A stretch of DNA of 64,000 bases, from the NCBI GenBank assembly GCA_021513695.1, contig CP084166.1:960001-1024000 (forward strand), given 5' to 3'. The stretch is from Candidatus Heimdallarchaeum aukensis. GTDB lineage: Archaea > Asgardarchaeota > Heimdallarchaeia > Heimdallarchaeales > Heimdallarchaeaceae. A model generated the notes under the pieces. The model was not told the origin of the DNA. It made no database searches and saw only the letters and a list, made by a program, of their open reading frames with translations. The translations under genes and the position numbers were made by a program. Of this stretch, positions 8,067 through 60,049 are shown piece by piece (within the stretch, counting starts at the first letter, position 1; every line of letters starts with the position of its first letter).

Positions 8067-8187
8067 TCTAGGCCCACCTAATCCATTTGCACTTTTTTTC
8101 GAAACGCTTTTAAACATGCTCAAATATTTTTCATTGATTGAAGAATCTTTCTTCGGTCATAATAATAACAAATTAGAAGGAATTATT

Positions 8188-10281
8188 ATGAAAAAAAGAA
8201 TGTTAATAACAAGCATTTTCATTTTTGCCTTTTTAGTAGCAGTTATTCCTTTAACTGCAAATGCTAAAGTCCTTTCTACTAGAGCTACAAAGGATTTGGG
8301 CGGTGGAGATGCTTATAACGCATATAGTGCATCTGATTATGCAACCCTTATTAGTACACCTATTTCGGGTTACGGAGATATTTACTATTCCAGTGATCAG
8401 TATGATCAATACAAAGTAGCAGTAAGTTCAGGAGATCAAGTAACGATTGAGTTTACTGCCCCTAGTGGAGCAACAGGAATTGATCTTCCTGTTTATGACA
8501 CTGACAAGTCTCGAATACTCATTCGTTACAACATCCAGACTTTCTCCGAGACTGTTACTGCTTCTGGCAACGGTTACATTTACTTTACTATAGATGCAGA
8601 CACTTATGATGATAGAGGTACTTATTATCTCAGTGTTTCTAAATCTGGAGCAGTTGACACTACTCCACCTACTGTAAGTATTACTGACCCTGCTGATGGA
8701 GCAACTGTTTATTCTGCAGATGTCACTGTTTCATGGACTGGTTCTGACAATGTCGGCATAGACTATTACGAGGTCAGAATTGATGGTGGTTCATGGATCA
8801 ATGTCGGAACATCTACAAGCTACACCTTTACTGGTTTAGCTGACGGTAGTCATACTGTAGATGTTAACGCTTATGACGCTGCAGGAAATGTTGGTTCTGA
8901 CAGTGTAACTTTCACTGTTGATACCAGTGCTCCTCCTACTGAGTATACTTTCACTGGTTCACTTAGTGCTGGACAGGACAGTACTCAACACACCTTTAAC
9001 GTTCCTTCCAACACCATTAAGATCGAGGTTCAGCTTCAAATGCCCAGTGGTGCAGATTACGATTTAAGCCTTTGGGACTCTAATGGAGCTCGAACTGGTG
9101 GTTGGACTTCAACTGATAGTAGTACTAAAACAGATATTGCCAACAGTGATTATTCTGGTTATTCTGCTGATCCTGAGTGGGTTACTGTTGATCCTCCTGC
9201 TGTTTTTGGTACCTGGAAGACTGGTTGTTATGCTTACAGTGGTTCTGGTACTTACACCATCACTGTTACTCTAACGCTCAGTGGTCCAGATACTACTGCA
9301 CCTACTGTTACTATAACTGACCCAACAGATGGTTCTACAGTTAATTCTGCTGATGTTACTGTTTCATGGACTGGTTCTGACGATGTTGGTATTGACCACT
9401 ATGAAGTCAGAATCGATGGTGGTTCATGGATCAATGTTGGAACATCTACAAGCTACACCTTTACTGGTTTAGCTGACGGCAGTCACACTGTAGATGTTAA
9501 TGCCTATGATGCTGCAGGTAACGTTGGTTCTGACAGTGTGACTTTCACTGTTGATACCACTACCAATCCTGTTGAAAAATGGGCAGTTATTGTTGGTATT
9601 AGTGACTACAAAGCTATTAGTGATCTTTCTTACTGTGATGAGGATGCAACTGACTGGTATTATCAACTTACCAGCAGTCAAATGAGTTATGACCATATCA
9701 CTGTTTTAGGAGATGGATATTCTTCTAACTATCCTCAATGGGATGGCTATGCTACAGAGTACAATGTTAAACAAGCTTTGAACAACATGGTTAATTCTGC
9801 TGACTCTAATGACATTATAGCTTTCATCAGTTCTGGTCATGGTTCGGGTAATGGTGCAGGTTCTTCATACTTGTGTATGTGGGACTGCAGTTCAGGAGAA
9901 AACGGAGAAGATGGAAATCTCTATGACACTGAATTAGCAGCAATTCTTGACGGAGCTGTTGCTGACAGGATTTTCGTCTTCTTAGACCATTGTTACAGTG
10001 GTGGTTTTGGAGACGACCTCATGAATATGCCTAACAAAGACCGTGTTTACCTAACAACAACCTGTACAGAAAATGGTTATGGTTATGATGACTCCACTCA
10101 TCAAAATGGTGCTTGGACTTACTACTTCCTAGATTACTCTTGGCAGCAACATTTCGGTGGTGCAGCTAATGTTGCTATGGAAGACATCTTCGACTATGCT
10201 TTAGCTGCTTATCCATACAGTGGTGGAGACACTCCTCAAGAGTTCGATGGAAACACAGGTGCGTACTTCTACCTGGCATAA
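8188..10281 (+). CDS. Secreted multidomain protein. It has a signal peptide, two tandem near-identical Ig/FN3-like domains and a C-terminal caspase-like (clan CD; C13/C14-type His-Cys dyad) peptidase domain.
   Basis: MKKRMLITSIFIFAFLVAV signal, preceded by AGAAGG. Repeated motif 'TxPTVxITDPxDGxTVxSADVTVSWTGSD' twice. 'SSGHG' plus 'LDHCYSGGFG' His/Cys dyad. The ORF track starts at 8116, but Met at 8188 with an SD is the more likely start. Confidence 0.7.
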   Translation: MKKRMLITSIFIFAFLVAVIPLTANAKVLSTRATKDLGGGDAYNAYSASDYATLISTPISGYGDIYYSSDQYDQYKVAVSSGDQVTIEFTAPSGATGIDLPVYDTDKSRILIRYNIQTFSETVTASGNGYIYFTIDADTYDDRGTYYLSVSKSGAVDTTPPTVSITDPADGATVYSADVTVSWTGSDNVGIDYYEVRIDGGSWINVGTSTSYTFTGLADGSHTVDVNAYDAAGNVGSDSVTFTVDTSAPPTEYTFTGSLSAGQDSTQHTFNVPSNTIKIEVQLQMPSGADYDLSLWDSNGARTGGWTSTDSSTKTDIANSDYSGYSADPEWVTVDPPAVFGTWKTGCYAYSGSGTYTITVTLTLSGPDTTAPTVTITDPTDGSTVNSADVTVSWTGSDDVGIDHYEVRIDGGSWINVGTSTSYTFTGLADGSHTVDVNAYDAAGNVGSDSVTFTVDTTTNPVEKWAVIVGISDYKAISDLSYCDEDATDWYYQLTSSQMSYDHITVLGDGYSSNYPQWDGYATEYNVKQALNNMVNSADSNDIIAFISSGHGSGNGAGSSYLCMWDCSSGENGEDGNLYDTELAAILDGAVADRIFVFLDHCYSGGFGDDLMNMPNKDRVYLTTTCTENGYGYDDSTHQNGAWTYYFLDYSWQQHFGGAANVAMEDIFDYALAAYPYSGGDTPQEFDGNTGAYFYLA

Positions 10282-10311
10282 CCTTTTTCTTTTTTTCTTT
10301 TTTCAGAGATT
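10282..10311 (+). terminator. Oligo-T tract (CCTTTTTCTTTTTTTCTTTTTTC) right after the stop codon. Possible archaeal intrinsic terminator.
   Basis: Seen directly; archaeal RNAP terminates at T-runs. Confidence 0.3.
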
Positions 10312-10486
10312 CCTTCGAAAATCTCTTTTTTTTCCTTTAATTTTAAGTAAATCTACATGTTTTCAAAAAATATGGATAAAGATTACCAGAAACACATTAT
10401 TGTTTTAGTTTCAAACAGATCAGAATAATTCATTTATTAAAAAAAAGAATAAATAAAGAATCTATTTCTTATTTTCTTTATTTAGT

Positions 10487-10693
10487 TTATTTTTCTGTTA
10501 TCCACATTTTATTGAAAGCTTTTCTTGTTGTTAGAATACTTGCTCCTATCCACGTTCTGTGCATTCTATCTGTGGTTGCTGTAATTCTTACAACTGCATT
10601 TTTTGGTGCAACTTTTTTCAATTCATAATCTATTCTTTCTCTCATTCCAGGTATCATTGAACTTCCTCCACATAAGATAACATTAGGCCACAA
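10487..10693 (-). pseudogene. Orphan C-terminal fragment of an actin-family gene (about 65 residues, lokiactin/actin-like). The rest of the gene is absent.
   Basis: Translation NVILCGGSSMIPGMRERIDYELKKVAPKNAVVRITATTDRMHRTWIGASILTTRKAFNKMWITEK aligns residue-by-residue with the actin C-terminus ([65 protein letters not shown]). It starts on TTG with an in-frame stop two codons upstream. Only ~240 nt separate it from the next gene, so a full ~1.1 kb actin cannot be present. Confidence 0.6.
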
Positions 10694-10930
10694 CAGTTAT
10701 TCTATTTCTTTACATTTTTGTATAGTTTAAACTATTTCTTCAACTAAGCCTTTTTTCTTTTCCTTTTCGCTTTCTTCAAACAATATTTCTGGTGCAAGAA
10801 ACTTTTCTTTGCTAATTGTATACACAAAGAAAGGAGAATTTTTGTGAAAAGGTTTTTGGAAAAGCAGTTTATCAATACAAGGAACCAAGTTTAGGAGTAG
10901 TTAAATGAAAAAAAAAGAAAAAGGAACACA

Positions 10931-11152
10931 CTATTCTTGTTTAACTGTAGATATCTTGAAAACTGTATATAATCCACAGTAACCTGTAATCCCAGTAATC
11001 AACGAGATTAATCCCACGATCAACAATATAATTAACAAGACCAAGTTTATTGGGGAGCTAAGTACAAAGTAGAAAACTATTGCCAAAACAGTTAGAATTG
11101 TTCCTAAAGCTACTCTTATTATTCTATCAGTTTTTCCTTCATTTACTTGCAT
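10931..11152 (-). CDS. Small two-TM membrane protein, DUF2892/YgaP-like (…GYCGLYTVFKIST).
   Basis: 73 aa with two hydrophobic helices and a C-terminal 'CxLY…ST' motif reminiscent of DUF2892. Confidence 0.45.
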   Translation of the reverse strand: MQVNEGKTDRIIRVALGTILTVLAIVFYFVLSSPINLVLLIILLIVGLISLITGITGYCGLYTVFKISTVKQE

Positions 11153-11307
11153 AGTGATTTAAAGTTCTTCAAAAGAGTATAAATATGTTAGTTATTTACA
11201 AAATCCTCGAATTAGCAGTAAAACAAATATAGATGCAAAAATCTGCCTGTTTTTAAGATATCTTAAATGTTCTGAGAGGGTAGTGTCTAGTTTTCTTCCG
11301 ACAAAAA

Positions 11308-12135
11308 TATTTGTGGGGACTCTAATAGTAAGATATGAACATTCAAAAACTATCTACTCTTTTTAAGAGATGCAGAGTCCCCAAAAAGATAATAATAAAA
11401 GTTTTTTATGAATATATTGGTTCAAAGAATGGTTTGAGGACAGTAGCATGGAAGAATGGTTTAACACACCAAACATTATGGTATTGGGTAAAGAAGTTCA
11501 GGCTCTTTAGGAAAAGTTTACATAGAATTGTAGCAGAGAGAGGGGGAATACCAGAGATTATAGTAGTTGATGAGACGGAGATTAAGACCTCTCAAGGCTC
11601 AATGTATATGTGGTTCGCGTTAGATCCTTACAACAAGACTTTACTGGGTTTTAGTATTACTAAAGGACGGAGTAATCTTGAATGTTTACTAACTTTCCGT
11701 TATTGGCTCAAATGTTGGGGTTTTAAGCCCCGTATTGTCGTTACAGATGCAGGGGTATGGTATCCTGCCTTACTTCGTCTAGGTATCAAAATCTCCGTTA
11801 TCAAAGGTGGTTTACGCTCCTATATTGAACGTTTTAATGCTACTCTTAAGAGTTATCGTTGGTTTCATTCTATTCTCCACTGCACTTGTCCTATCCGTGC
11901 CGTCTATGGCTCTACTCATCTTTCTGGTTTTCTTACTCTCTTTATGCTCCATTATAATTTCGTTCGTCCTCATCAGAGCTTGGGACATCCTCCCCTTAGT
12001 TCCTTTTTACCTAGGAGGTGGTATAAAAACTAGACACTACCAAGAAAGCAGGTCCAAAAATTAATTTTTATTAATGTGGGGGTTTATGTCGGAATTATGA
12101 ACTATTTTCAGATTATAGACCCCCACAAAGTAAGA
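11308..12135 (+). mobile_element. IS6-family-like insertion sequence (~0.83 kb), a single DDE transposase gene flanked by imperfect terminal inverted repeats.
   Basis: Left end TTTGTGGGGACTCTAATAG (11310-11328) versus the reverse complement of the right end CTTTGTGGGGGTCTATAATC (12112-12131). An internal transposase ORF lies between them. Confidence 0.6.
11335..12033 (+). CDS. DDE transposase, IS6-like (VDETEIK … VVTDAGVWY … ERFNATLK motifs).
   Basis: DETxIK and ERFNxxLK strings are characteristic of IS6/IS26-type transposases. N-terminal HTH-like region. Confidence 0.65.
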   Translation: MNIQKLSTLFKRCRVPKKIIIKVFYEYIGSKNGLRTVAWKNGLTHQTLWYWVKKFRLFRKSLHRIVAERGGIPEIIVVDETEIKTSQGSMYMWFALDPYNKTLLGFSITKGRSNLECLLTFRYWLKCWGFKPRIVVTDAGVWYPALLRLGIKISVIKGGLRSYIERFNATLKSYRWFHSILHCTCPIRAVYGSTHLSGFLTLFMLHYNFVRPHQSLGHPPLSSFLPRRWYKN

Positions 12136-14420: not shown

Positions 14421-15563
14421 ATGAATAAAATTATAGTCATTGGTGGAGGATTTTCAGGTCTTACTATAGCTAACAAACTTGCAAAAAAAGCTAGAAAATA
14501 CAAGTTAGACATAACTCTGATCGAACCAAAAGACCATAATTTTTACGAGCCAGATCTGATTTTTTATGCATTTAACAATAAGAAACTGTCCAAGTTATAT
14601 AAACCGATGCATAAACTCGTGAGGAAAAGAGTTAATCACATTGGGATGCGGGCTAAAAAGGTCGAGACAGAGAAAAAGAAAGTAATATTAGAAGATGGGA
14701 CAGAGTTAGATTACGATTATCTAGTTCTTGCTACTGGAGTTAAATATATAGAAAAAGATTTCAAATATAGTGAACAAAAACACATTCATCACTTCTATAG
14801 CCCACCAGCAACAGAAAAGTTTAGACAAATGATAAAACGTTTTAAAGGAGGAACAATTGTTATCTCACCATCAACTGTGCCCTATAAATGTCCTCCAGCT
14901 CCTGTAGAATTCACTTTTATGTTAGATTCTTATTTAAAGAAAAGAAAGTTAAGAGACAAAGCAACGATAAAGTTTCTCTATCCTCTTTCTGTGCCTTTTA
15001 CAGTTAAAGAAGCTGCTGTTGTGGTAGCTGAGATGTATAAAAAAAGAGGAATAGAATTTGTTCCTTACTGTAATTACGAAAAAGTGGATATTGAGAACAA
15101 AAAATTCATCTCTTTTGAAGGAGAAGAGATAGAATACGATGAACTTGTACTGCTACCCATACATGAAGGTCAAGATATAATCAAAGAATCAGGTCTGGGA
15201 GATAAAGAAGGATATGTTCCTACAGACAAATTCACACTGCAAGTGAAAGGGCATCCAAATATATATGCTATCGGTGACTGTACAGATCTACCTACTTCTA
15301 AGGCTGGAGCAGTTTCTCATTATTCTGCACCTACTATCGTAAAAAATATTATTAACCAGATTAAAGGAAAAGAAGCTTCAGCAAAGTATAACGGAAAGAC
15401 AATTTGCTTCTTAGTAACTAGTTATCAAAAAGCAATGATGTTGGACTTTTCATATAACCATCCTTCAAGAAAGTATGGATTAATTCCAATGAGAATCTAT
15501 ATGCTCTTTAAAAGGCTATTTAGGTTCTTGTATTTTCATATATTAATTAAAGGAATAATATAG
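14421..15563 (+). CDS. FAD-dependent pyridine-nucleotide-disulfide oxidoreductase, sulfide:quinone oxidoreductase (SQR)-like.
   Basis: N-terminal Rossmann 'VIGGGFSGL'. 'YKCPPAPVEF' resembles the SQR/flavocytochrome cysteine motif. Second GD motif 'AIGDCTD'. Confidence 0.6.
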   Translation: MNKIIVIGGGFSGLTIANKLAKKARKYKLDITLIEPKDHNFYEPDLIFYAFNNKKLSKLYKPMHKLVRKRVNHIGMRAKKVETEKKKVILEDGTELDYDYLVLATGVKYIEKDFKYSEQKHIHHFYSPPATEKFRQMIKRFKGGTIVISPSTVPYKCPPAPVEFTFMLDSYLKKRKLRDKATIKFLYPLSVPFTVKEAAVVVAEMYKKRGIEFVPYCNYEKVDIENKKFISFEGEEIEYDELVLLPIHEGQDIIKESGLGDKEGYVPTDKFTLQVKGHPNIYAIGDCTDLPTSKAGAVSHYSAPTIVKNIINQIKGKEASAKYNGKTICFLVTSYQKAMMLDFSYNHPSRKYGLIPMRIYMLFKRLFRFLYFHILIKGII

Positions 15564-15572
15564 GTGAAAAAA

Positions 15573-15812
15573 ATGAGTGAAAATAAAATCACAAAAATAT
15601 TAGATGTAAAAGGGCTTAACTGTCCTTTACCAATTTTAAAAACAAAAAAAGCTATAAACGAAATTGAAGTTGGAGAAATAATAGAAGTTCTTGCCACTGA
15701 TCCAGGTTCAGTAAATGACTTTCAGGCATGGATTGAATCAACTGGACACGAACTAGTGGAATCTGCAGAAGAAAATGGCATTTTCCGCTATTTAATTAAA
15801 AAAACAAAATAA
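15573..15812 (+). CDS. tusA: TusA-like sulfurtransferase.
   Basis: 'LNCPLP' motif. SD-like GGTGA before ATG 15573 (the ORF track begins at GTG 15564). Confidence 0.8.
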   Translation: MSENKITKILDVKGLNCPLPILKTKKAINEIEVGEIIEVLATDPGSVNDFQAWIESTGHELVESAEENGIFRYLIKKTK

Positions 15813-15823
15813 AGGTGAAAAAA

Positions 15824-16297
15824 ATGAGTGAAAAAAAGAAAAAAATAGCTATAATTGCTTCTAAAGCCAATTTAGCAGATGCTTACCCTCCTTTTATCTT
15901 AGCGTCTACAGCAGCTGCAATGGATTATGAAGTATCAATATTCTTTACTTTCTTCGGTCTTAATTTGCTTAAGAAAAAAGGATTGAAGAAAGTTAAGATT
16001 ACTCCTGTAGGAGAAACTGCAATGCCCATGCCTATTCCACAAATAGTTGGAATGCTTCCTGGAATGACTGACATGGCAACAGCAATGATGAAAAATTGGA
16101 TGAAAAAGGCCAATGTGGTCTCTTTAGAAGAGTTAAGAGAATTATCTCTAGAAGCTGGAGTAAAAATGATTGCTTGTCAAATGACAATGGACGTAATGAA
16201 AGTTAAAAGAGAAGAATTAATTGATGAAATAGAGGTTGGAGGAGCTGCCACTTTCCTACAATTTGCATCAGAAGCCGACATTACTTTATACATTTAA
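15824..16297 (+). CDS. dsrE: DsrE/DsrF-family sulfur-relay protein.
   Basis: ~155 aa; 'IAIIASK…' DsrE-like fold signature and the 'IACQM' cysteine region; paralogous to 17564..18001. Confidence 0.65.
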   Translation: MSEKKKKIAIIASKANLADAYPPFILASTAAAMDYEVSIFFTFFGLNLLKKKGLKKVKITPVGETAMPMPIPQIVGMLPGMTDMATAMMKNWMKKANVVSLEELRELSLEAGVKMIACQMTMDVMKVKREELIDEIEVGGAATFLQFASEADITLYI

Positions 16298-16317
16298 CCT
16301 AGTTTGAAGTGATAAGG

Positions 16318-16695
16318 ATGTCTGAACAAAAAAAGAAGATGATTATCGTTGTTACTAGAGGAGAAGAAAGTAAAGAAACCTTAGAACCTCCTCTTCATAT
16401 TGCAACTATGGCTGCTCTGTTAGATGCAGAAGTAAAGATGATATATACTGCTAAAGCCGGACTACTATTAAAGAAAGGTGTACCAGAAAAACTAATTCCT
16501 CAAGAAGGAAGACAACCATTGATAGAAACAATTCGAGAAGCAAAAGAAGCAGGTGTTCAAATATACGTATGCACCCCAGTGCTAGAATGGAATAAACTTA
16601 ATAAAGATGATTTCATAGAAGAAATAGATGGAATTGTCGGAGCAATGACTTTAGTTAAAGAGTCACTTGAAGCTAACTCGACAATATCATTCTAA
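16318..16695 (+). CDS. DsrE/DsrF/DsrH-like small protein.
   Basis: ~125 aa; 'MIIVVTRG…YVCTPVLE' resembles DsrE-fold proteins. Confidence 0.5.
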   Translation: MSEQKKKMIIVVTRGEESKETLEPPLHIATMAALLDAEVKMIYTAKAGLLLKKGVPEKLIPQEGRQPLIETIREAKEAGVQIYVCTPVLEWNKLNKDDFIEEIDGIVGAMTLVKESLEANSTISF

Positions 16696-17120
16696 TGAAG
16701 TGGAAAATAATGTCTCTCTCACTTAACTCGCTGTTATCCAAAGATATTACCTGCTTTGATGTAATAAAGAATCTTTTTGCCTTAACTGATAATGAAATTG
16801 ATGTTTTAGCTTGTATTAACCACCTTCAACCAGTAAGCATAGCTAGAATTACAGAAATAATACCCAAAGATAGAGCCACTATATCAAGATCTATCTCTAG
16901 ATTAATGAGCATCGGAGTTGTACGGAAAGAAAAAGAAAATTTGGAGAAAGGAGGATACCAATTTCTGTATAGTAGCTTACCTATGAACGAATTAAGAAAA
17001 TTTGTAAAAAGTACCTTGAATGCAATAATTGAAAATATGAGTATCGCAATGGATAACTTAACAAAAGAAAAATGTGAAGAAAAATTCCAAGAAGTAAAAA
17101 GGAAATACAGCAAAAAATAG
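16695..17120 (+). CDS. Winged-helix (MarR/TrmB-like) transcriptional regulator.
   Basis: '…VSIARITEIIPKDRATISRSISRLMSIGVVRKE…' HTH plus wing. Confidence 0.5.
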   Translation: MKWKIMSLSLNSLLSKDITCFDVIKNLFALTDNEIDVLACINHLQPVSIARITEIIPKDRATISRSISRLMSIGVVRKEKENLEKGGYQFLYSSLPMNELRKFVKSTLNAIIENMSIAMDNLTKEKCEEKFQEVKRKYSKK

Positions 17121-17236
17121 ATTTCCTTTAACAATTTTCCTTTACATTTTTGTTGGTTAACGTTTTATAAAATAGTTATCCTTTTCATTTTATAGATAAA
17201 AGAATTCAAAAAAACTCTTATATTAAATCTTTTTTT

Positions 17237-17521
17237 TTGAGTAAACAAGAAAATAGTGTGATAATAATGACAGAAGTAGATCTAAATAAAATCAAAGCGC
17301 ATCATATTGTAGATGCTAGAGGTTCAGCATGTCCTGGACCATTATTAGAAGCAAAGAAAGGAATCTCAAAGGTTCCCAAAGGAGGAGTCCTTGAAGTTCA
17401 ATCTAGCGACCCTGGTACAAAAAATGATCTTCCTGCATGGTGTAGACGAGCAGGACATAAATTTTTGGGCGTTTTAGAAGCAGATGGATATGATAGAGTT
17501 TTCATTCAAAGACTAAAATAG
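17237..17521 (+). CDS. tusA: TusA-like sulfurtransferase.
   Basis: 'SACPGP' motif. Confidence 0.8.
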   Translation: MSKQENSVIIMTEVDLNKIKAHHIVDARGSACPGPLLEAKKGISKVPKGGVLEVQSSDPGTKNDLPAWCRRAGHKFLGVLEADGYDRVFIQRLK

Positions 17522-17526
17522 AATAT

Positions 17527-17545
17527 TCCTTTTTTTATTAAATTT
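17527..17545. terminator. T-run/A-run between convergent tusA and dsrE-like genes. Possible bidirectional terminator.
   Basis: CCTTTTTTTATTAAATTTTAAAAAAAA lies between two convergent stops. Confidence 0.25.
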
Positions 17546-17563
17546 TAAAAAAAATAAAAAGAA

Positions 17564-18001
17564 TTATATTAAGATATTTGCTTTTGCTTTTGTTGCTGCT
17601 TCAATATATGAAGCTATACCAGAAATTTCATCTACAAGATCAGAGAAATCATCTTCTGGGATATCAAAAAGTGGGATCATGTTAGAACAAGCAATTATTT
17701 TAACATTTCCTGACTCTTTTGCTTTCTTAAGAGCTGCTCTCCAATTACCTAGTCCTTTTTCTTTCATATTTTTGCGCATCAGTTCCTCATAAGGTTGTCC
17801 CTCTATACTTACTGGAAAATGATCTGGTGCGCCTTTTCTAAAAGCATGAGTTCCCCAAAAAGCTAGAAAAATATGTACATCATAATCCATTGCAATAGCT
17901 CCATTTGTTATTGTTGCAAGAGCTATGAGTTTTTCTTCTGTTCCAGAGGTTACCATTATACTAAATAATTCTCTTTCTTCTGACATAATAAACCACATCA
18001 C
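17564..18001 (-). CDS. dsrE: DsrE-family sulfur-relay protein.
   Basis: '…IIACSNM…' active-cysteine region; global similarity to 15824..16297. Confidence 0.65.
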   Translation of the reverse strand: MMWFIMSEERELFSIMVTSGTEEKLIALATITNGAIAMDYDVHIFLAFWGTHAFRKGAPDHFPVSIEGQPYEELMRKNMKEKGLGNWRAALKKAKESGNVKIIACSNMIPLFDIPEDDFSDLVDEISGIASYIEAATKAKANILI

Positions 18002-18210
18002 ACTGGTTGCGTGTCCAGATTCACAACTGGCATTTTAAAGATTTTGTAGTTTTTATAACAATAAAAATATTTTTTAATAGATTACGAATTGTTTTTTATA
18101 ATAAGCTCTTTTTATAATTGGCTTTTATCTTAACATATATGCTTTTTTAGTTTATTATCGCTCTATAATTTAAAAAAAATTATTATATCTTTTAAAAATT
18201 TTATTCCAAC

Positions 18211-18630
18211 ATGCAACAAAATGCAAAAAGACAAAAAATTAAAACCAAGAAGATTCTGATTATAACAACAAACGATATTTCTTATCTTGGTGCAGACACA
18301 GCAGGACAGCAACATCTAAAGTATTCAGAAGATGCTCTGATAATACGTGTTCCTGATCCTGTAATTTTTCCACCTGATTTTTATGTGAGAACATTAGAGA
18401 AAGGATTTGGGGGGATAATTGTAGCTTCTGCTGGTGATGAATCTCCTTTCTTGAATTCTCATGCCAGATTAGCGAAGAATATTGATGCTGCTTATAAAAT
18501 AATGAATGAAAAAGGAATTGACACAAAAAGGCTTGTTCTTACAGCCATTTGTAGCATTTGTGCAGGAAGTTTTATCAAAGCTGTTAACAACATGACTAAA
18601 TATTTAGACAGTGTTCATGAGCAAGAGTAA
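18211..18630 (+). CDS. MvhD/FlpD-like protein (hydrogenase delta subunit family). It has few cysteines.
   Basis: '…YLGADTAGQQHLKY…IIRVPD…' matches the MvhD core (…SYGGADTAG…IIRV…). Only a CxxC ('ICSICAG') remains. It sits immediately upstream of hdrA, as mvhD often does. Confidence 0.5.
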   Translation: MQQNAKRQKIKTKKILIITTNDISYLGADTAGQQHLKYSEDALIIRVPDPVIFPPDFYVRTLEKGFGGIIVASAGDESPFLNSHARLAKNIDAAYKIMNEKGIDTKRLVLTAICSICAGSFIKAVNNMTKYLDSVHEQE

Positions 18631-18643
18631 AGAGGAGAGATAA

Positions 18644-19927
18644 ATGAAAAATTATGATGCTTTAGTGATTGGAGCAGGGATCTCTGGTATTCAGACTGCG
18701 TTAGATCTAGCAGAACAGGGATTTAAAGTATTAATGATTGATAAAAAGAAAAGTACGGGAGGAGTAATGATTCAATTAAGTAAAGTTTTTCCGACTTTAG
18801 ATTGTGCATCTTGTATTACTACTCCCAAGATGAGTGAAGCGAGTAATCACCCAAATATAGAAACATGGACATTAAGTGAAGTTACAAGCATTAGTGAAAA
18901 TAACGGTTCTTATGTAGTAAATATACTCAAACACCCGCGATATGTAGATCTTGTAAAATGTACTGGTTGTGGAATATGTGAAGAAGTTTGTCCTGTAATA
19001 GTTGAAGATGAATATAATGAATACTATGGAATAAGGAAAGCTGTGGGTGTACCCTTTGGCACTGCAATTCCTCAAAAGGCAGTGTTAGAACCAGAATATT
19101 GCATTTTTTGTGGGGCTTGTGCGAAAAAATGTCCTACACAAGCAATTGAGTATGATCAAGAGCCAGAAAACATAGAAGTTAAAGTAAAAGCTGTAATTGT
19201 TGCTACAGGTTTTGAACAAACGCCAATAAAAGAAGAATATGGGGGAGGACGGTATAAGAATGTAATCAATGCCCTTACTATGGAAAGGCTTTTAGCTCCA
19301 ACAAGTCCTTTTGGTGGAGTTTTTCGCCCAGGAGATGGCAAGAATCCCTATTCTATTGCTTATATTCAATGCGCTGGTTCAAGAGATGCGAGTATTGGTG
19401 TTCCTTATTGTTCTAGAGTCTGTTGTATGTTCGCAGTGAAACAAGCCATGTTACTCTGCGGAGCAGCACCTTTAGCTGATATTACAATCTACTATATGGA
19501 TATCCGAGCTTTTGGTAAAAGGTATGAAGAGTTCTTCCAAGAAGCAAGAGAAATGGGTATAAATTTTGTTAAAGGTAAAGTCGCAAAAATAGAAGAACTG
19601 GAAAATGGTAATCTTAAGCTTAGAGTAGAGGTTCAAGAAGAGGAAGATTATGGAGTTAAGGAAATAGAACATGAACTTGTTGTTTTATCATCTGGAATGC
19701 TTCCCGCTTGGAAACCTGAAAAAGTGAGAGAAATATTACCGCTTGAAATCCACAAGTATGGTTTTATTAAAAGTCTACAACCACATGTAAATCCGTCTCA
19801 AACTAATTTAGATGGAATATTTGTTTCAGGAACAGCTATGGCCCCAATGGATATTGTAGATTCAATTTATAGCGGTAGTACAGCAGCAATGAAAGCTGCT
19901 TTGTACATTAAGAAAATTAAGGAGTAG
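18644..19927 (+). CDS. hdrA: HdrA-like FAD/FeS flavoprotein (heterodisulfide reductase subunit A family).
   Basis: 'DALVIGAGISG' FAD motif; two CxxCxxCxxxCP ferredoxin motifs; HdrA signature 'CAGSRDxxxxxxxxCSRVCC'. Confidence 0.8.
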   Translation: MKNYDALVIGAGISGIQTALDLAEQGFKVLMIDKKKSTGGVMIQLSKVFPTLDCASCITTPKMSEASNHPNIETWTLSEVTSISENNGSYVVNILKHPRYVDLVKCTGCGICEEVCPVIVEDEYNEYYGIRKAVGVPFGTAIPQKAVLEPEYCIFCGACAKKCPTQAIEYDQEPENIEVKVKAVIVATGFEQTPIKEEYGGGRYKNVINALTMERLLAPTSPFGGVFRPGDGKNPYSIAYIQCAGSRDASIGVPYCSRVCCMFAVKQAMLLCGAAPLADITIYYMDIRAFGKRYEEFFQEAREMGINFVKGKVAKIEELENGNLKLRVEVQEEEDYGVKEIEHELVVLSSGMLPAWKPEKVREILPLEIHKYGFIKSLQPHVNPSQTNLDGIFVSGTAMAPMDIVDSIYSGSTAAMKAALYIKKIKE

Positions 19928-19930
19928 ATC

Positions 19931-21958
19931 ATGATGTCAGAGAAAGTGAAAATCGGAGTTTATGTTTGTCATTGCGGCTTCAACATAGCTGAAATGGTAG
20001 ACGTAAAAAAAGTTGCTGAAGTGTTGGGAAAAGAAGAAGATGTGGAAGTTGCAAAAGATTTTATTTTTATGTGTTCTGACGCTGGGCAAAAGATGATTGA
20101 AAATGATATCAAAGAAAAGGGAATAAATAGGGTTATTGTTGCATCATGTTCTCCACTATTGCATGAAAAAACATTTCAAGGTGTTTTGGAGCGTGCAGGG
20201 CTAAATAAATTCCTCTTTGAACACATAAACATTAGAGAGCAAGTAAGTTGGGTAAGTAAAAACAAAGAGTCGGCTACAGAAAAGGCTATTCGTTTAATTA
20301 GAGGAGGAATAGCGAAAATACGGAAACAACAAGCTCTTGAACCAATTCTAAAGAAAGTGACTAAAAGTGTAGCAGTTATAGGAGGAGGAGTTGCAGGGCT
20401 AATTTCAGCAAAGAATTTGGGTGAAATGGGCGTTGATGTAACATTAATAGAAAAAAGTCCTTTTATTGGAGGAATGGTTGCAAGATGGGATAAATTGTTT
20501 CCAAACGATGAAAATGCTCAAGACATAGTTCGTAAACTAATAGAAGAAGTAAAAGATAATAAACATATACGGATTCTTACTAATTCTCAGATAGTGGGAG
20601 GAAAAGGGAGTTTAGGTGGATATTCTGTCACAATAGAGACAATTTCCAGAGGAATCAAAAGACTTCCAGAGAATATAGAAAACATTCTTTCTTCTTGCCC
20701 CATAGAAATAGACTCTCCTGAATCTTTTGGGTTAGAAAAAAGAAAAATTGTTTACAAACCAGAATACATATGCTATCCTGAAGAATATGCCATAGATTGG
20801 GATAATCTATCTGATGCAAAAGAACTAGAGAAATACAAAAAATGGGTTAAAGAGTCTAATCTTGAAGAAAAATTTGAATTAGAAAAAACAGTAACAAAAG
20901 AAGAAATTAATGTGGGAGCAATAATATTCGCTACTGGTTTTGAACCTTATGAACCTTATGAGGGAGAATATGGGTGGAAGAAGCATCCAAATGTTGTTAC
21001 TTTGCCACAATTAATAGAAATTCTAAAAAGAGTAGACAAAAATCAAACTCATTTCGTTTATAATGGGAAGGAAATTAAATCTGTAGCCTTTATTCATTGT
21101 GTTGGAAGTAGACAAATAGAAGGAGAAGATATCCCAGGACCTGATGGAAAGCTAAATACTTACTGCTCACGATATTGTTGTAATGCTACTATACATACAG
21201 CCAATGAATTGAAGAAACTTTACCCAAATTTACACGTTTATGAATTCTATCGTGATATTCGTACATATGGTCTTGACGATGAGGATATGTATACTAAAGC
21301 TTCCAAGAACGATGTTATATTTTTGAGATTTAACAATGAGTATAAACCAGAAGTTCAGATTTTAGAGAATGAAAAGTATAATTTTGTTATATCTGTAAAA
21401 GATCAATTAAGTTACTACGAAGAAGTTGACATACCAGCGGATATGGTAGTGTTAAGTGTTGGAATGGTTCCTCCACAGATAGATGATCTAGTATCTATTT
21501 TCACTGTCTCAAGAGGAAATGATGGTTTCCTACTTGAAGCTCATCCAAAACTAAAACCTGTTGAAACTTCTTCTGGTATTTTCCTTGCTGGAACAGCGCA
21601 AGGACCTATGAATGCAAGTGAAGCTGCTGCAGGAGCTACAGCAGCTGCAGTTAAAGTAGCAGCAGTGGTTTCTAAAGATGAGCTAGCTTTATCTCCATTT
21701 ATTGCTCGTGTTGACATTACAAAATGTGATGCTACTGGAAAATGTGTTGAAGTGTGTGAATATAATGCTATTGAAGTAACTGAGGTTGAAGTCGAAAAAG
21801 GAAAAGTGGAAAGAAAAGCGCAAGTTAATCCTACTTTATGTGTAGGAGGAGGAACATGTGTAAGCGCATGCCCTAACCAAGCTATTCGCATTGTTGGATG
21901 GACGAACGAGCAAATTGAAGATATGATTACTGCGATGATCAAGGAGGTTAAAGAATAA
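19931..21958 (+). CDS. hdrA: HdrA-like paralog (675 aa) with an N-terminal Cys-rich domain and C-terminal 2x[4Fe-4S] domain.
   Basis: 'VAVIGGGVAG' FAD motif; 'CVGSRQ…CSRYCC' HdrA signature; C-terminal 'CxxxGxCxxxCE' / 'CVGGGTCVSACP'. Confidence 0.75.
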   Translation: MMSEKVKIGVYVCHCGFNIAEMVDVKKVAEVLGKEEDVEVAKDFIFMCSDAGQKMIENDIKEKGINRVIVASCSPLLHEKTFQGVLERAGLNKFLFEHINIREQVSWVSKNKESATEKAIRLIRGGIAKIRKQQALEPILKKVTKSVAVIGGGVAGLISAKNLGEMGVDVTLIEKSPFIGGMVARWDKLFPNDENAQDIVRKLIEEVKDNKHIRILTNSQIVGGKGSLGGYSVTIETISRGIKRLPENIENILSSCPIEIDSPESFGLEKRKIVYKPEYICYPEEYAIDWDNLSDAKELEKYKKWVKESNLEEKFELEKTVTKEEINVGAIIFATGFEPYEPYEGEYGWKKHPNVVTLPQLIEILKRVDKNQTHFVYNGKEIKSVAFIHCVGSRQIEGEDIPGPDGKLNTYCSRYCCNATIHTANELKKLYPNLHVYEFYRDIRTYGLDDEDMYTKASKNDVIFLRFNNEYKPEVQILENEKYNFVISVKDQLSYYEEVDIPADMVVLSVGMVPPQIDDLVSIFTVSRGNDGFLLEAHPKLKPVETSSGIFLAGTAQGPMNASEAAAGATAAAVKVAAVVSKDELALSPFIARVDITKCDATGKCVEVCEYNAIEVTEVEVEKGKVERKAQVNPTLCVGGGTCVSACPNQAIRIVGWTNEQIEDMITAMIKEVKE

Positions 21959-22260
21959 TGTCTGAAGAAAAATATGATTATCGAACAGCCCTAAAAAAGC
22001 TGAAAGAAAAAATGGGTGGAACAAAAGCTGAATTGTTAGAGAGAAACAAGCAAAGAAACAAAGACAAGAAACTAGTGGTACAAGCAATTAAGGAGGGTCT
22101 TTCAACTGTTCCTAAGGTTGCAGAGAAAACTGGTCTTCCAACAGATAGGGTGTTTTCTATAATTAACCAACTAGTAAAATATGAAGGGCTTGTGATGAAA
22201 GACAAGCGAAGCGAATATCCTGTGTATGGTTTTGTAGAAGAAGGTGAAAAAGATGAGTAA
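21958..22260 (+). CDS. Small winged-helix-like protein (100 aa).
   Basis: '…GLSTVPKVAEKTGLPTDRVFSIINQLVKYEGLV…' HTH-like. Confidence 0.4.
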   Translation: MSEEKYDYRTALKKLKEKMGGTKAELLERNKQRNKDKKLVVQAIKEGLSTVPKVAEKTGLPTDRVFSIINQLVKYEGLVMKDKRSEYPVYGFVEEGEKDE

Positions 22261-23473
22261 TATTACAGTTGATCTAAATCTAATTAAAGAAATTAAAAAA
22301 TATGGAGCATTTGATGTCTCTGCTTGCTTTAACTGCGGAACATGTACAGCAATTTGTCCTTTGACTGATGAAGAAGGTAATTTTCCAAGACGTATTATTA
22401 GATATGCACAATTAGGTCAAAAAGAAAAACTTGAAGGTTCAAAAGAGTTATGGTTATGTTATTACTGTGGTGAGTGTTCTGACACTTGCCCTCGTGAAGC
22501 AGATCCAGGAGAGTTCATGATGTCAGCAAGGAGATATGCAATAGCTAGTTATGATCCTACAGGTATCTCCAAACTTCTTTACAAATCTAAACTTTTTTCT
22601 GGTTTTATGGTCGCTTTAGTAGCATTTTTGGTAGGATTGGCTTTTTACATTGTACGTGGAAATGAGGTACACGCAGATTCTTTGCTTTTTGAAATCGATC
22701 CTGCTTATATTCATTGGGGTGGTTATGCTCTTATGGCATTTTTAGCCATAGTTGTAGTTGCTGAACTGTGGAAAATGACGACTAGGATTTATAAGAAGGA
22801 AAAAGAAAAACTGGAGAAAGAAGGAGTAGAAATAGATGAGAAAATTTTTCCAAAGCTTGTTAGATGGGTGAAAAATGCGTTTAACATTGTATTTGTTGAA
22901 TTTATAGCTCAAAAAAGATACTTTAGAAGAGAAAAAGTTGAAGAAGAAAAATGGATTTTTTCTAAATGGTTTATTCACTTAAACATAGTTCTTGGTTTTT
23001 CTGGATTATTTGTGGCAACTGCACTAGATTTCTTTTTAGATATTATAAACGTAAAGAAAACTCCAATCGGTGCAGTACCTTTATTCTATCCCACAAGATT
23101 GTTAGGAACAATTGCTGGATTAATGTTACTATATGGAATAATTCTCGCTTTCTTCTTTAGACTTAAGAAACAAGACTCTTCAAGAGAACATTCACGATTT
23201 TCTGATTGGTTTCTTTTATCCTTGCTTTTTGGACTAGCTGTTTCAGGATTTATACTAGAAATTCTAGTCTACTTTCCTTTAGCTAATGAACAATTTGCTT
23301 TCTGGACTTTTATTGTGCATGTGGTTTTTGCTGTAGAGATGATTATTTTTGCACCATTTTCAAAACTTGCTCATCTTATGTATAGAACCTATGCTCTTTG
23401 GATTTACAAAAATTTACAAACAGCACCCAAAAAATATCCAGAAATAGCTGATCTAATAATATATGAAGATTAA
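22253..23473 (+). CDS. HdrC-like 2x[4Fe-4S] ferredoxin domain fused to a polytopic His-rich membrane domain (HdrE/NarI-like cytochrome b candidate).
   Basis: 'CFNCGTCTAICP' and 'CYYCGECSDTCP' followed by ~5 TM helices containing conserved-looking His. SD GGTGA before ATG 22253. Confidence 0.6.
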   Translation: MSNITVDLNLIKEIKKYGAFDVSACFNCGTCTAICPLTDEEGNFPRRIIRYAQLGQKEKLEGSKELWLCYYCGECSDTCPREADPGEFMMSARRYAIASYDPTGISKLLYKSKLFSGFMVALVAFLVGLAFYIVRGNEVHADSLLFEIDPAYIHWGGYALMAFLAIVVVAELWKMTTRIYKKEKEKLEKEGVEIDEKIFPKLVRWVKNAFNIVFVEFIAQKRYFRREKVEEEKWIFSKWFIHLNIVLGFSGLFVATALDFFLDIINVKKTPIGAVPLFYPTRLLGTIAGLMLLYGIILAFFFRLKKQDSSREHSRFSDWFLLSLLFGLAVSGFILEILVYFPLANEQFAFWTFIVHVVFAVEMIIFAPFSKLAHLMYRTYALWIYKNLQTAPKKYPEIADLIIYED

Positions 23474-34824: not shown

Positions 34825-35625
34825 TTAGAGATAGAAGAAAACTCCGGTATCGCCATCAAATTCTTGAGGTGTATCTCCACCGTCATAAGGATAAACGGAT
34901 AGAGCACTATCAAAAGTCTCTTCCATTGAAGCTGAACCACCATATATTCCAATAAGAGTGTATTCTAAGAAGTAATAGGTCCAAGCTCCATTTTGATGAG
35001 TAGGATCATCATATCCGTATCCATCGTCGGTGCAGGTTGTGGTCATATACACCTTAGCAGCATTAGCGTTTTCCATAACTTCATTCATACCGCCACTGAA
35101 GCAGTGATCAAGGAAAATGAAGGTGTTACTTACAGATGGGGCCATCATATCTTTAAGTTCTGAGTCATAAATTAGACCATCTTCTCCATTTTGACCAGCA
35201 CTTGTGTCCCACATGCATAATGCTTGAACATAGACACGAGTCCATCTGCTTCTTCCACCAATGTTGACCTCTGTTCCATGACCTGAACTTATGAATGCTA
35301 CGATATCGTTTTCGTCAGCTTGTGCAAGTATGTTTGCCCAAGCAGTTTTTACGTTATATTCTGTGGCTAATCCATCATATTGTGGATAATTTGCAGGATT
35401 GCTATCTCCTAATAATACTATTTGATAGCCTAATCCATTTAAGTAATTATACCAATCGGTAGCATCTTCATCGCAGTATGATAAGTCGCTAATTACGTCA
35501 TAGTCGCTTATACCGATAATAAGAGCATATTTGTCAACAGGATCAACTACAGCTTTTGCTGCTGTTATTGATGTAAACAATACCATCAAACCGATAAAAC
35601 CCATAAGGATTGTTTTTCTTTTCAT
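34825..35625 (-). CDS. Secreted caspase-like (clan CD) peptidase, paralog of the C-terminal domain of 8188..10281.
   Basis: Signal peptide. 'YALIIGISDYDVISDLSYCDEDATDWY', 'FISSGHG', 'FLDHCFSGG' collinear with the domain in 8188..10281. Confidence 0.65.
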   Translation of the reverse strand: MKRKTILMGFIGLMVLFTSITAAKAVVDPVDKYALIIGISDYDVISDLSYCDEDATDWYNYLNGLGYQIVLLGDSNPANYPQYDGLATEYNVKTAWANILAQADENDIVAFISSGHGTEVNIGGRSRWTRVYVQALCMWDTSAGQNGEDGLIYDSELKDMMAPSVSNTFIFLDHCFSGGMNEVMENANAAKVYMTTTCTDDGYGYDDPTHQNGAWTYYFLEYTLIGIYGGSASMEETFDSALSVYPYDGGDTPQEFDGDTGVFFYL

Positions 35626-36960: not shown

Positions 36961-38208
36961 AGGTGTGGCGAACTGAGGAAATATGGGTGAAAGATTCGAT
37001 CACTCTAAAACAGTTAGCACACAAGGTAAAAAACTTGTATAATCAAGCAAATTACATTATTAAGTATCAGTTAAGAAGAAGTAAATATTTCACAAAAGAG
37101 TTTGAACTAATGAATATTTTAAGGTATCACCCCGACTTACACAGCTTTACCTGGTCATACGGCACAACAGACGATAAAGTTTCTATGTTTAGCGTGGAAA
37201 GGGTATTTTAGGTCTTTAGAAGAATGGAAAAAGGAACCAGAAAAGTTTAACGGTAAACCTCGTCCTCCAAGATATAAGAAGAAAGAGGGACTAGGTATAA
37301 TCTATTTTACTAACTCTCAAGTGAAAATTAAAGAAGAAAAAGAAAAAGAAAAGAAAAGTAAAGGTAAATTCTTTATCTCTTTTCCTAAACGTGTAGGACT
37401 AAAGATAGTTACAAGACTCGACCCTTCAACTAAAGTGAAGTTTGCCCGGCTCATACCTATGGGAACGAAGTTTAAATTAGAGATAGTTTACGAGAAAGAG
37501 ATAGAAGAGCTAAAAGAACGACCAGCAGAAAGAGTTTTAGCTCTTGTTCTGGGAGTGAATAACCTTGTAGCTGGTTTGACCACTATTCCTGGTGAAAAAG
37601 GCTTCCTGATAAATGGTCGGCCCATTAAAGCTGTTAATCAGTGGTTCAACAAACGTAAAGCAAAATTACAGTCAATCTATGACAGACAAGGGTTAACCAC
37701 TTGGGGAAGAAAAATGCTCACCCTCCAGTTAGAGCGAATGTGTAAAATAGCTGACTATTTCCATAAAGCAAGTAGAAAAATAGTAGACTACTGTTTAGAA
37801 AAAAACATTGATACAATAGTTATAGGTTATAACCCCCGATGGAAACAGAAGGTTGATATGGGTAAAAAAAATAACCAAAACTTCGTTTTTATCCCCTTCA
37901 AAACCCTCATTGATAAAATCACTTACAAAGCAGAAGAAAAAGGAATAAAAGTTATTCCTACCAAAGAATATTACACTTCTGTCTGCAGTTTCTTGGATAA
38001 TGAAGAGATAGCTTTTCACACTCATTATGCTGGTAAAAGGATCCACCGTGGACTGTTTATCAGTGCCCAAGGATTAAGAATTAACGCTGATATCAACTCT
38101 GCAGGTAATATCGGTCGCAAAGTATTCCCCACGTTATTCTCTGTTATGTCTAACTACGGGATAGTCTGGGGTGCCGTGGTTCACCCTGTCCGTTGGAAAA
38201 TAAGTTAG
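36951..38208 (+). pseudogene. tnpB: TnpB-like (IS200/IS605 OrfB family) gene interrupted by a +1 frameshift near the C4 run at 37130-37133. RuvC-I Asp and RuvC-II Glu appear substituted.
   Basis: Frame 0 carries the N-terminal segment. Frame +1 from ~37122 reads '…YTALPGHTAQQTIKFLCLAWKGYFRSLEEWKKEPEKFNGKPRPPRYKKK…', the classic TnpB helix. Downstream: '…NADINSAGNIG' RuvC-III. Zn-finger cysteines are largely absent. Confidence 0.65.
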
Positions 38209-49947: not shown

Positions 49948-50841
49948 GTGAGGATTATGAGTGTTGAAGAGTATTCAGGTAAAGACAGAGTTAATTTGGA
50001 GTACCTTGTGAAAGTGATTGATGATTTAATTAAAAAAACAAATCTTATTGAGAAAATGTTAACTGATGAAAAAGAGGGTAGAATTAATCAATATAAAGAA
50101 TTAACAAAGAAAATTGAAAAAAGTGAAAAAGAAACTAAAAGTATTAACACTCAACTGTCAAATTTAAAAACAAAACAACTGTCAAGCCTTTCTAAAGAAA
50201 TTGAAGATTCAAAGAAGGCGTTATTAATTATAAAAGAAAGAATTGATGAAAAAGATAAAGATATTGAAAATCTTGAGATGAAAATTAGTGAAGTAAACAA
50301 ACTGTTTGAACAGTTTAAATCTAATCTAAACGAAGAAAAACAGATCAGAGAAGAAAAAGAACAAGAAATACAAGAGCTAAAAGAAAAGAATAGCGAACTA
50401 AGCATAAGGTTAGAAGAAAAAGAAGAAAGACTGAAACAACTTGAGAATGAATTAACAAAATTAAAAGAACAACTAGGTTCATTGAAAGATAAAAAAGAAA
50501 ATCTTACTTCTAAAATTGAGAAATTAAAGGAAGAAAAGAAAGAACTAAACGAAAAATTGAAAGAAATCGAAAAAGAATATAAAAACTACAAAGACAATAT
50601 GGAACCAGTAATTGCTCAAAATACACATATTAAAAAACTACTTGACGAGAGTTTACAAGGAAAAATATATCTTTACTTACTAGAAAAATATCCAAAAACA
50701 TCAAATATTGATGATATAGCGAAAGAAATAGACTCTCCTGCTGTGAAAATAAAGTCAGAAATACTAGCAATGCAAGAAATGGGTGTAATAAGATACAATA
50801 CTGATACAAGAGAAGTTTTTATCACAGAAAAAAAAGTCTAA
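49948..50841 (+). CDS. Coiled-coil protein with a C-terminal winged-helix-like domain.
   Basis: ~200 aa of heptad-like K/E-rich sequence, then '…YLYLLEKYPKTSNIDDIAKEIDSPAVKIKSEILAMQEMGVIRYN'. Confidence 0.45.
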   Translation: MRIMSVEEYSGKDRVNLEYLVKVIDDLIKKTNLIEKMLTDEKEGRINQYKELTKKIEKSEKETKSINTQLSNLKTKQLSSLSKEIEDSKKALLIIKERIDEKDKDIENLEMKISEVNKLFEQFKSNLNEEKQIREEKEQEIQELKEKNSELSIRLEEKEERLKQLENELTKLKEQLGSLKDKKENLTSKIEKLKEEKKELNEKLKEIEKEYKNYKDNMEPVIAQNTHIKKLLDESLQGKIYLYLLEKYPKTSNIDDIAKEIDSPAVKIKSEILAMQEMGVIRYNTDTREVFITEKKV

Positions 50842-59942: not shown

Positions 59943-60049
59943 CAAATTTTTTATAGAAAAATAAAACTAATGCTTTTTTTATTTTTTATTTGCACCTAGG
60001 AAAATGTTATTTATTGTTAACGAACTATTGGTATAATAGGAGAAGCAAT

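Follow-up and report, generated by a model that had tools for sequence, protein, structure and literature searches.

A short actin-like open reading frame (ORF) lies on the minus strand at 10487..10693 of the 64,000-nucleotide stretch of archaeal DNA analysed here (the window). The question that it raises is whether this piece of actin is a working gene, a scar left by a neighbouring insertion sequence (IS), an artefact of assembly, or the remainder of a decayed gene and, in the last case, which kind of actin the decayed gene encoded. The locus is very probably a non-functional pseudogene, in which the 3' third of a gene of the actin family has survived as a relic; the host is an Asgard archaeon labelled Freyarchaeota. 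It is an ordinary pseudogene.

Extent, Reading Frame, and Lesions of the Relic

The ORF starts on TTG, comprises 68 codons plus a stop, and encodes MWPNVILCGGSSMIPGMRERIDYELKKVAPKNAVVRITATTDRMHRTWIGASILTTRKAFNKMWITEK. This peptide matches the Pfam family Actin (PF00022) with 69.5 bits (E 2.7e-19), with the curated gathering score of 27 bits taken as the cut-off, and the locus is the sole significant match of human beta-actin in a tblastn comparison with the 64-kb window (E 3e-17). A sequence-only reading of this DNA had described an orphan C-terminal fragment of the actin family and had named the Pfam model as a check, and both searches bear out the assignment. Its account of the size and placement of the fragment stands in part: the ORF is real, but has 68 rather than 65 codons, and homology covers ~113-122 codons (10490..10825, possibly to 10855) that are collinear with actin residues ~247-360. 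The ORF itself corresponds to actin ~293-360 and not, as had been proposed, to the very last ~65 residues at the canonical end; the number of missing N-terminal codons is about 250 instead of ~310.

The frame of the ORF runs on upstream across two in-frame TAA codons (Table 1), the nearer of which stands two codons before the TTG start (TAA-CTG-TTG), as had already been read correctly. When the stops are masked, the conceptual translation of 137 aa matches PF00022 with 90.3 bits (E 1.3e-25) at profile positions 270-394 of 410. It reads VYTISKEKFLAPEILFEESEKEKKKGLVEEIV, stop, TIQKCKEIE, stop, LLWPNVILCGG and onward, collinear with actin 247-360 (ITIGNERFRCPEALFQ and onward). Only this C-terminal part of the profile is matched, and the complete actin/Hsp70/hexokinase-type fold is absent. 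The homologous block has no start codon, and no other actin-like segment, the N-terminal part included, was detected in the 64-kb window by tblastn and homology searches. The 5' breakpoint lies somewhere within 10826-10907, with robust homology beginning at ~10825.

Within the 122 codons, the actin frame contains two stops, and the remaining frames of this strand contain 11 and 8. TAA is the stop codon of 36 of the 50 long ORFs in the window; it is thus the usual stop here, and both TAA codons of the relic are therefore true nonsense codons. Recoding or readthrough of the stops was considered and rejected on the same count, and the N-terminus would be missing in any case. Most residues that are invariant in the family (GG, PG, R, W.G, W) are kept. 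No frameshift occurs in the 122 codons, and nearly every residue that is invariant in the family is kept; both findings indicate that the relic has decayed to a limited degree.

At the 3' end, the parent gene probably had its native stop at the terminal TAA of the ORF: in the alignment, the closest relatives (P0009, P0161, P0162, and P0163) end here as well, and a T-rich run follows 27-50 nt downstream. This run looks like an archaeal oligo-T terminator and would fit the native 3' end of a gene. A 3' truncation by a third nonsense mutation is less likely: canonical actins have E/Q where the relic stops, but the relatives end at this point and the T-run follows. No trace of the EYxExGP tail was seen in frame downstream of the relic stop.

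Table 1. Features of the relic locus and its surroundings, in window coordinates
Feature	Position	Strand	Remarks
721-aa secreted Big_7/caspase-like (Peptidase_C14) protein gene	8116..10281	+	Convergent downstream neighbour of the relic
T-rich run, 27-50 nt downstream of the relic stop	10439..10460	-	Read from the sequence; putative
Terminal TAA of the relic	10487..10489	-	Aligned with the ends of relatives, WIT(E/K)K and stop
3' block of the relic, TTG ORF	10490..10693	-	Actin ~293-360; LxGG 'adenosine' motif and WIGxSIL; PF00022
Second in-frame TAA	10697..10699	-	Aligns with K/R/S of relatives; in all three assemblies
Nine codons between the nonsense codons, TIQKCKEIE	10700..10726	-	Collinear with actin
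First in-frame TAA	10727..10729	-	Aligns with Y/D/F of relatives; in all three assemblies
Upstream homologous block VYTISKEKFLAPEILFEESEKEKKKGLVEEIV	10730..10825	-	Collinear with actin 247-281
Tentative 5' extension, KPFHK..Y	10826..10855	-	Weak, by alignment only with RKIHK..Y of relatives
Oligo-T run directly after the YgaP-like stop, between that gene and the relic	10908..10925	-	Read from the sequence; putative
YgaP-like 73-aa membrane protein gene, intact	10931..11152	-	PF11127, E 2.9e-19; 0 strain substitutions
IS6-like element, 763 bp	11279..12041	+	Perfect 16-bp terminal inverted repeats GGTAGTGTCTAGTTTT; 232-aa transposase ORF 11335..12033

Independent Assemblies and Strain Divergence

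The 68-aa peptide has one near-identical relative in the databases, P0001, annotated as 'hypothetical protein ACTSP1_19655 [Candidatus Freyarchaeota archaeon]'. Its contig, which was retrieved twice (L001 and L034; NCBI GCA_054383975.1, JGI 3300033141; 2280 bp), belongs to a metagenome-assembled genome (MAG) of another sample and strain and aligns end to end with window positions 11390..9067 at 97.4%, with 17 mismatches over 2.3 kb. On this contig, the order is again YgaP-like gene, relic, C14 gene. A contig of the Logan resource (L035, 953 bp), from an independent assembly of SRR15988959, corresponds to 11253..10299 with 0 mismatches and spans the YgaP-like gene, the relic, and intergenic DNA. 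The 5' truncation and both nonsense codons are identical in the window and in these two assemblies. The neighbouring M14 peptidase region has matches of 100% identity in two further contigs (L002 and L003, from SRR15988954 and SRR15988959).

The two strains differ at five of the 369 nt of the relic (1.4%). The corresponding values are 1.0-2.1% for the flanking intergenic stretches and 0.35% for the flanking coding DNA (5 in 1437 nt; 0/222 in the YgaP-like gene and 5/1215 in the C14 gene). The relic has therefore diverged at about the intergenic level and ~4-fold more densely than its coding flanks (Fisher p = 0.035, from small counts of 5 versus 5). Each of the five differences in the relic replaces the encoded amino acid (K>E, K>R, V>D, R>T, and, in the LxGG strand, C>Y); in the C14 gene, three of five are synonymous. 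Five non-synonymous differences out of five have a probability of 0.33 under neutrality and weakly exclude strong purifying selection. These observations fit neutral evolution of the remaining relic sequence.

Neighbouring Genes and the IS6-Like Element

The upstream neighbour of the relic, the YgaP-like gene, stands between it and the IS and ends 238 nt upstream of the ORF, in agreement with the ~240 nt noted before. The downstream neighbour, the Big_7/caspase-like gene, shows several features of its own. It contains an internally duplicated Big_7 module (8656..8929 and ~9300..9570), the DNA copies of which are ~86% identical, and a stand-alone Peptidase_C14 paralogue of 266 aa at 34825..35625 has ~64% DNA identity to its C14 domain. 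On the MAG contig of the other strain, a deletion of 43 nt (window 9543..9585) splits this gene into two called genes, which may mean either that the gene is decaying in that strain or that the region of repeated Ig domains was misassembled.

The IS begins at 11279, 586 nt from the ORF, and the earlier description of an IS6-like element at about this distance is correct. It fits the IS6 format, defined by a length of ~0.7-0.9 kb, one ORF for a DDE transposase, and short terminal inverted repeats that start with GG. The best model for the transposase is NF033587 (IS6), with 47 bits and E 2.4e-12 against a cut-off of 125; models of IS3, IS1, and IS481 also match weakly, and the Pfam scores for rve_3 and rve are under their cut-offs. 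The flanks of the element, TCTGAGAG and AAGAAAGC, contain no 8-bp target-site duplication. The window contains one copy of the element. The genome probably has more, because other assemblies have contig breaks at the element or close to it. Neither a solo inverted repeat of the IS nor any other repeat was found at the 5' junction of the relic. Rfam and tRNA scans of the window returned no RNA genes.

Affiliation of the Parent Gene

The fragment had been called lokiactin-like, with a similarity to eukaryotic actin typical of lokiactins, and this attribution does not hold. In the 122 columns that it covers, the relic has 33% identity to human beta-actin, compared with 54-65% for lokiactin-type Asgard proteins and 34-39% for a group of actin-like proteins that includes P0009 (hereafter the P0009 group). 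Against the lokiactin-type sequence Thor_L008, the values are 38% for the relic, 57-89% for other lokiactin-type proteins, and 40-44% for the P0009 group. The lokiactin-type set comprised eight Asgard sequences (Thor, Baldr, Sigyn, Kari, Wukong, and Loki), for which an identity of 66-89% within the group over these columns is also given.

Sub-family hidden Markov models (HMMs) point the same way. The lokiactin-type model gives 107.7 bits for the relic and 186-230 for held-out members. The relic scores highest with the P0009-group model (122.6 bits; held-out members 156-253); its scores with the remaining models are 113.9 bits for eukaryotic actin-like proteins, 107.6 bits for other Asgard actin-related proteins (ARPs), and 105.9 bits for Arp1-like proteins. 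However, lokiactins themselves reach 112-124 bits with the P0009-group model, and the relic's best score among the five groups is no better than theirs. In a neighbour-joining tree with bootstrap on the 122-column alignment, the relic joins the P0009 group in 56% of replicates and a long-branch fungal actin in 31%; pairing with lokiactin-type sequences is in no common bootstrap outcome of this method on these columns.

When phmmer matches were re-ranked using the full conceptual translation, the closest proteins by identity (~120 columns) were P0163 (45%), P0009, P0161, and P0162 (42-43%), and P0164 (42%). The relic shares LW(P/S)N, WIGASIL, and R.xF(N/S)K.WIT(E/K)K with these proteins. Its C-terminal end, WITEK and stop, is that of P0163, and P0009, P0161, and P0162 end in WITKK and stop, without the EYxExGP tail. 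To judge from these comparisons, the parent of the relic is a divergent ARP-type actin paralogue and not the conserved lokiactin; they also point weakly to the P0009 group as its nearest relatives.

None of the searches turned up a closely related intact protein. An exhaustive phmmer search with the 68-aa ORF against 1.84 billion cluster representatives (~15 billion proteins) returned nothing above 49% identity except P0001, the relic's own ortholog, and thus lent no support to the suggestion that part of an intact gene was duplicated recently. A word-indexed search with the relic returned two proteins, and an actin-wide profile search gave no match to the relic above 43% identity. A scan of genome contigs yielded 12 prokaryotic loci with the family pattern, all from genomes other than that of the relic and all encoding actin relatives; by their MAG labels, nine are from Asgard lineages and the other three from an uncultured archaeon, Bathyarchaeia, and an uncultured bacterium. 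In metagenome contigs, the matches were limited to short contigs and to 31-34% identity. The database searches with the relic and the 68-aa peptide revealed no homologous short ORF in other lineages. Exact look-ups of the 721-aa neighbour, the 68-aa ORF, and the transposase returned no record, and the YgaP-like, C14, M14, and transposase proteins had no matches near the actin genes of other Asgard loci.

Alternative Explanations

Misassembly into a chimera, or an error of sequencing, is extremely unlikely to account for the truncated locus. A repeat (the IS) is nearby and the data are short-read metagenomes, but the same junctions and both stops occur on the MAG contig of another sample and strain, which differs by its 17 mismatches, and the independent Logan assembly crosses the whole locus without a mismatch; the chimera that had been contemplated for this region is thus set aside. 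A rearrangement scar of the IS6-like element, by adjacent deletion or by recombination between IS copies, would account for the truncation in another way and is unlikely. The position of the breakpoint (10826-10907) relative to the IS end (11279) speaks against it, as an IS-adjacent deletion would put the break right at the end of the element, and here an intact and perfectly conserved YgaP-like gene with its T-run lies in between. The junction, too, is free of solo inverted repeats and of other repeats. In favour of such a scar are the proximity of an element with perfect 16-bp inverted repeats, the breakage of contigs of other assemblies at or near it, and the missing target-site duplication, which suggests that the IS took part in a rearrangement. 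The role in the truncation that was earlier assigned to the IS is accordingly not retained.

It is highly improbable that the fragment is a relic or partial duplicate of lokiactin, with an intact lokiactin elsewhere in the genome sharing this 3' end. The fragment does belong to the actin family and comes from an Asgard host, and all Asgard classes are reported to have lokiactin (PMC9834061); nevertheless, both identity comparisons and the lokiactin HMM place the relic far below lokiactin-type proteins, and the exhaustive phmmer search shows nothing above 49% identity except its ortholog. The remaining alternative, that the short ORF (68 aa from the TTG or 56 aa from an internal ATG) is a functional actin-derived microprotein that might, for example, bind or cap the cell's own actin filaments, is very unlikely. 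The ORF is intact in three assemblies and was called by gene callers in two, it keeps most of the invariant residues of the family, and a T-rich, terminator-like run follows it. Against these points, all three strain differences within the ORF change amino acids, including V>D and the C>Y change in the LxGG strand, its substitution density is that of intergenic DNA, its TTG start lies two codons past a stop in a continuous decayed frame, other lineages yielded no homologous short ORF, and the fragment is without the nucleotide-binding half of the fold. Expression of the leftover ORF of 56-68 aa as a microprotein that interferes with or caps host actin filaments is a more speculative idea.

Probable Origin and Decay of the Relic

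The pseudogene reading calls for a short series of events. An actin-family parent gene would once have been located downstream of the YgaP-like gene. In the simplest history, an internal deletion of ~750 bp would have removed its 5' part, and the nonsense mutations by which two sense codons of the parent have become TAA would have come before or after this deletion. The ~250 missing N-terminal codons would carry phosphate-1, connect-1, and phosphate-2, and consequently ATP binding and the whole fold are lost. Since there are only two stops and no frameshift in 122 codons, the inactivation may be fairly recent relative to the divergence of the parent, yet it would predate the split of the two sampled strains. 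In the relic sequence, a stop would arise from about 5.6% of single-base changes, so the two stops correspond to roughly 0.1 substitutions per site since inactivation. The relic itself presumably does nothing, and the ORFs called in it (68 aa at NCBI; 56 aa and 53 aa at JGI) would be by-products of decay. The earlier view that the fragment is a non-functional remnant agrees with the missing 5' part, the two in-frame stops, and the neutral-looking substitutions.

The past of Asgard ARPs is described as one of 'gene losses, gains and duplications', as opposed to the strictly conserved lokiactin (PMC9834061). The locus described here would be a concrete and datable example of such ARP loss: a divergent paralogue after a 5' deletion and two nonsense mutations, in a state common to two strains. 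There is also a very slim chance that nothing but this relic survives of an otherwise unsampled clade of actin-related paralogues, with ARP loss in progress in Freyarchaeia. Pieces of the relic stand in public annotation as 'hypothetical protein' with an Actin Pfam match (NCBI ACTSP1_19655, 68 aa; JGI, 56 aa and 53 aa), and annotated pieces of this kind can inflate the counts of eukaryotic signature proteins in Asgard MAGs. The relic has no bearing on how Asgard actin works.

Other Features of the Window

Gtr1/RagA-type GTPases are eukaryotic signature proteins and are typical of Asgard archaea. Two adjacent convergent genes of the window, with abutting 3' ends (59990..61462, plus strand; 61463..62686, minus strand), encode small GTPase domains of this type with long extensions (PF04670, E 1e-23 and 2e-32). 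The Asgard origin to which the actin fragment had been taken to point is corroborated by this pair, by the Candidatus Freyarchaeota label of the orthologous contig, and by the 12 actin loci of the genome-contig scan, nine of which carry Asgard labels. Directly upstream of the RagA-like GTPase gene lies an ORF of 1535 aa (55335..59942, plus strand) that has no Pfam match at E <= 1e-5.

Several other genes of the window were recorded in passing. A cluster at 14421..23473 resembles sulfur-relay and heterodisulfide-reductase systems and encodes a pyridine-nucleotide disulfide oxidoreductase, TusA, DsrE, FlpD, HdrA-like FAD/Fe-S proteins, and an Fe-S protein. A Logan contig from SRR15988954 matches this cluster at 100% identity. 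A TnpB-like ORF of 295 aa (37321..38208, plus strand) combines OrfB_IS605 with a Cas12f1-like TNB domain and may be truncated. The gene at 49948..50841 (plus strand) encodes a coiled-coil protein of 297 aa with weak similarity, below curated cut-offs, to the crescentin rod and to ATG16.

Comparison with Known Actin Families

The closest known counterparts of the relic are the Heimdallarchaeial actin-like proteins of 379-385 aa (P0009, P0161, P0162, P0163, and P0164), an uncharacterised Asgard group of ARP type. P0162 is encoded by JAHLWR010000011.1 of Candidatus Heimdallarchaeota 18H4_34 (contig L007), P0164 is from Candidatus Heimdallarchaeaceae, and the closest solved structure of the group is PDB 9wc4, 'HC1 actin'. 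Their 42-45% identity to the relic is its highest with any group; they are similarly distant from beta-actin (34-39%) and have the same C-terminal end. Unlike them, the relic is truncated and carries nonsense codons, its host belongs to another Asgard lineage, and its score of 122.6 bits with their HMM is below their own range of 156-253.

The genes for members of this group have an overlapping upstream partner of ~243-246 aa, found on contigs L004, L005, and L006 and without a match in the window; the partner gene could have been lost along with the 5' part of the relic's parent. The partner precedes P0009, P0162, and P0164 (L004 561..1301, L005 5268..6008, and L006 654..1385) and has no Pfam match. 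Together with the Heimdall-type actin-like gene, it may form a conserved actin-like operon. The partner protein on L005, the only copy that was read, starts with a basic stretch, GRPRKYATSAERKRAYRERKKERL, that by eye recalls the basic region of bZIP proteins, and L006 has a further actin gene immediately upstream.

Lokiactin, which is conserved in Asgard archaea and forms the sister group of eukaryotic actin (Rodrigues-Oliveira et al., 2022; PMC9834061), is like the relic in superfamily, Pfam family, and host kingdom, and the two share the collinear motifs ERF.APE, LSGG, PG, an APPER-like motif, and WIGGSIL. The relic differs from it in having WIGAS in place of WIGGS and in being without the C-terminal tail EYxExGPxIVHRK. 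The viractins, actin-related genes of giant viruses (Da Cunha et al., 2022; PMC8850707), are 36-40% identical over the relic region, are no closer to the relic than Asgard proteins, and sit in giant-virus contigs. A viral origin of the relic was rejected, since these viractins were all that the scan of viral contigs returned.

Among solved structures, the best match of the relic is eukaryotic Arp1/centractin (PDB 5adx_A, E 3.5e-21), with 41% identity over 108 columns of the same collinear region. The context of the relic is nevertheless prokaryotic, and the Arp1-like HMM gives it a lower score than the models of the other groups. The top rank of Arp1 probably reflects a general ARP-like divergence, and not orthology.
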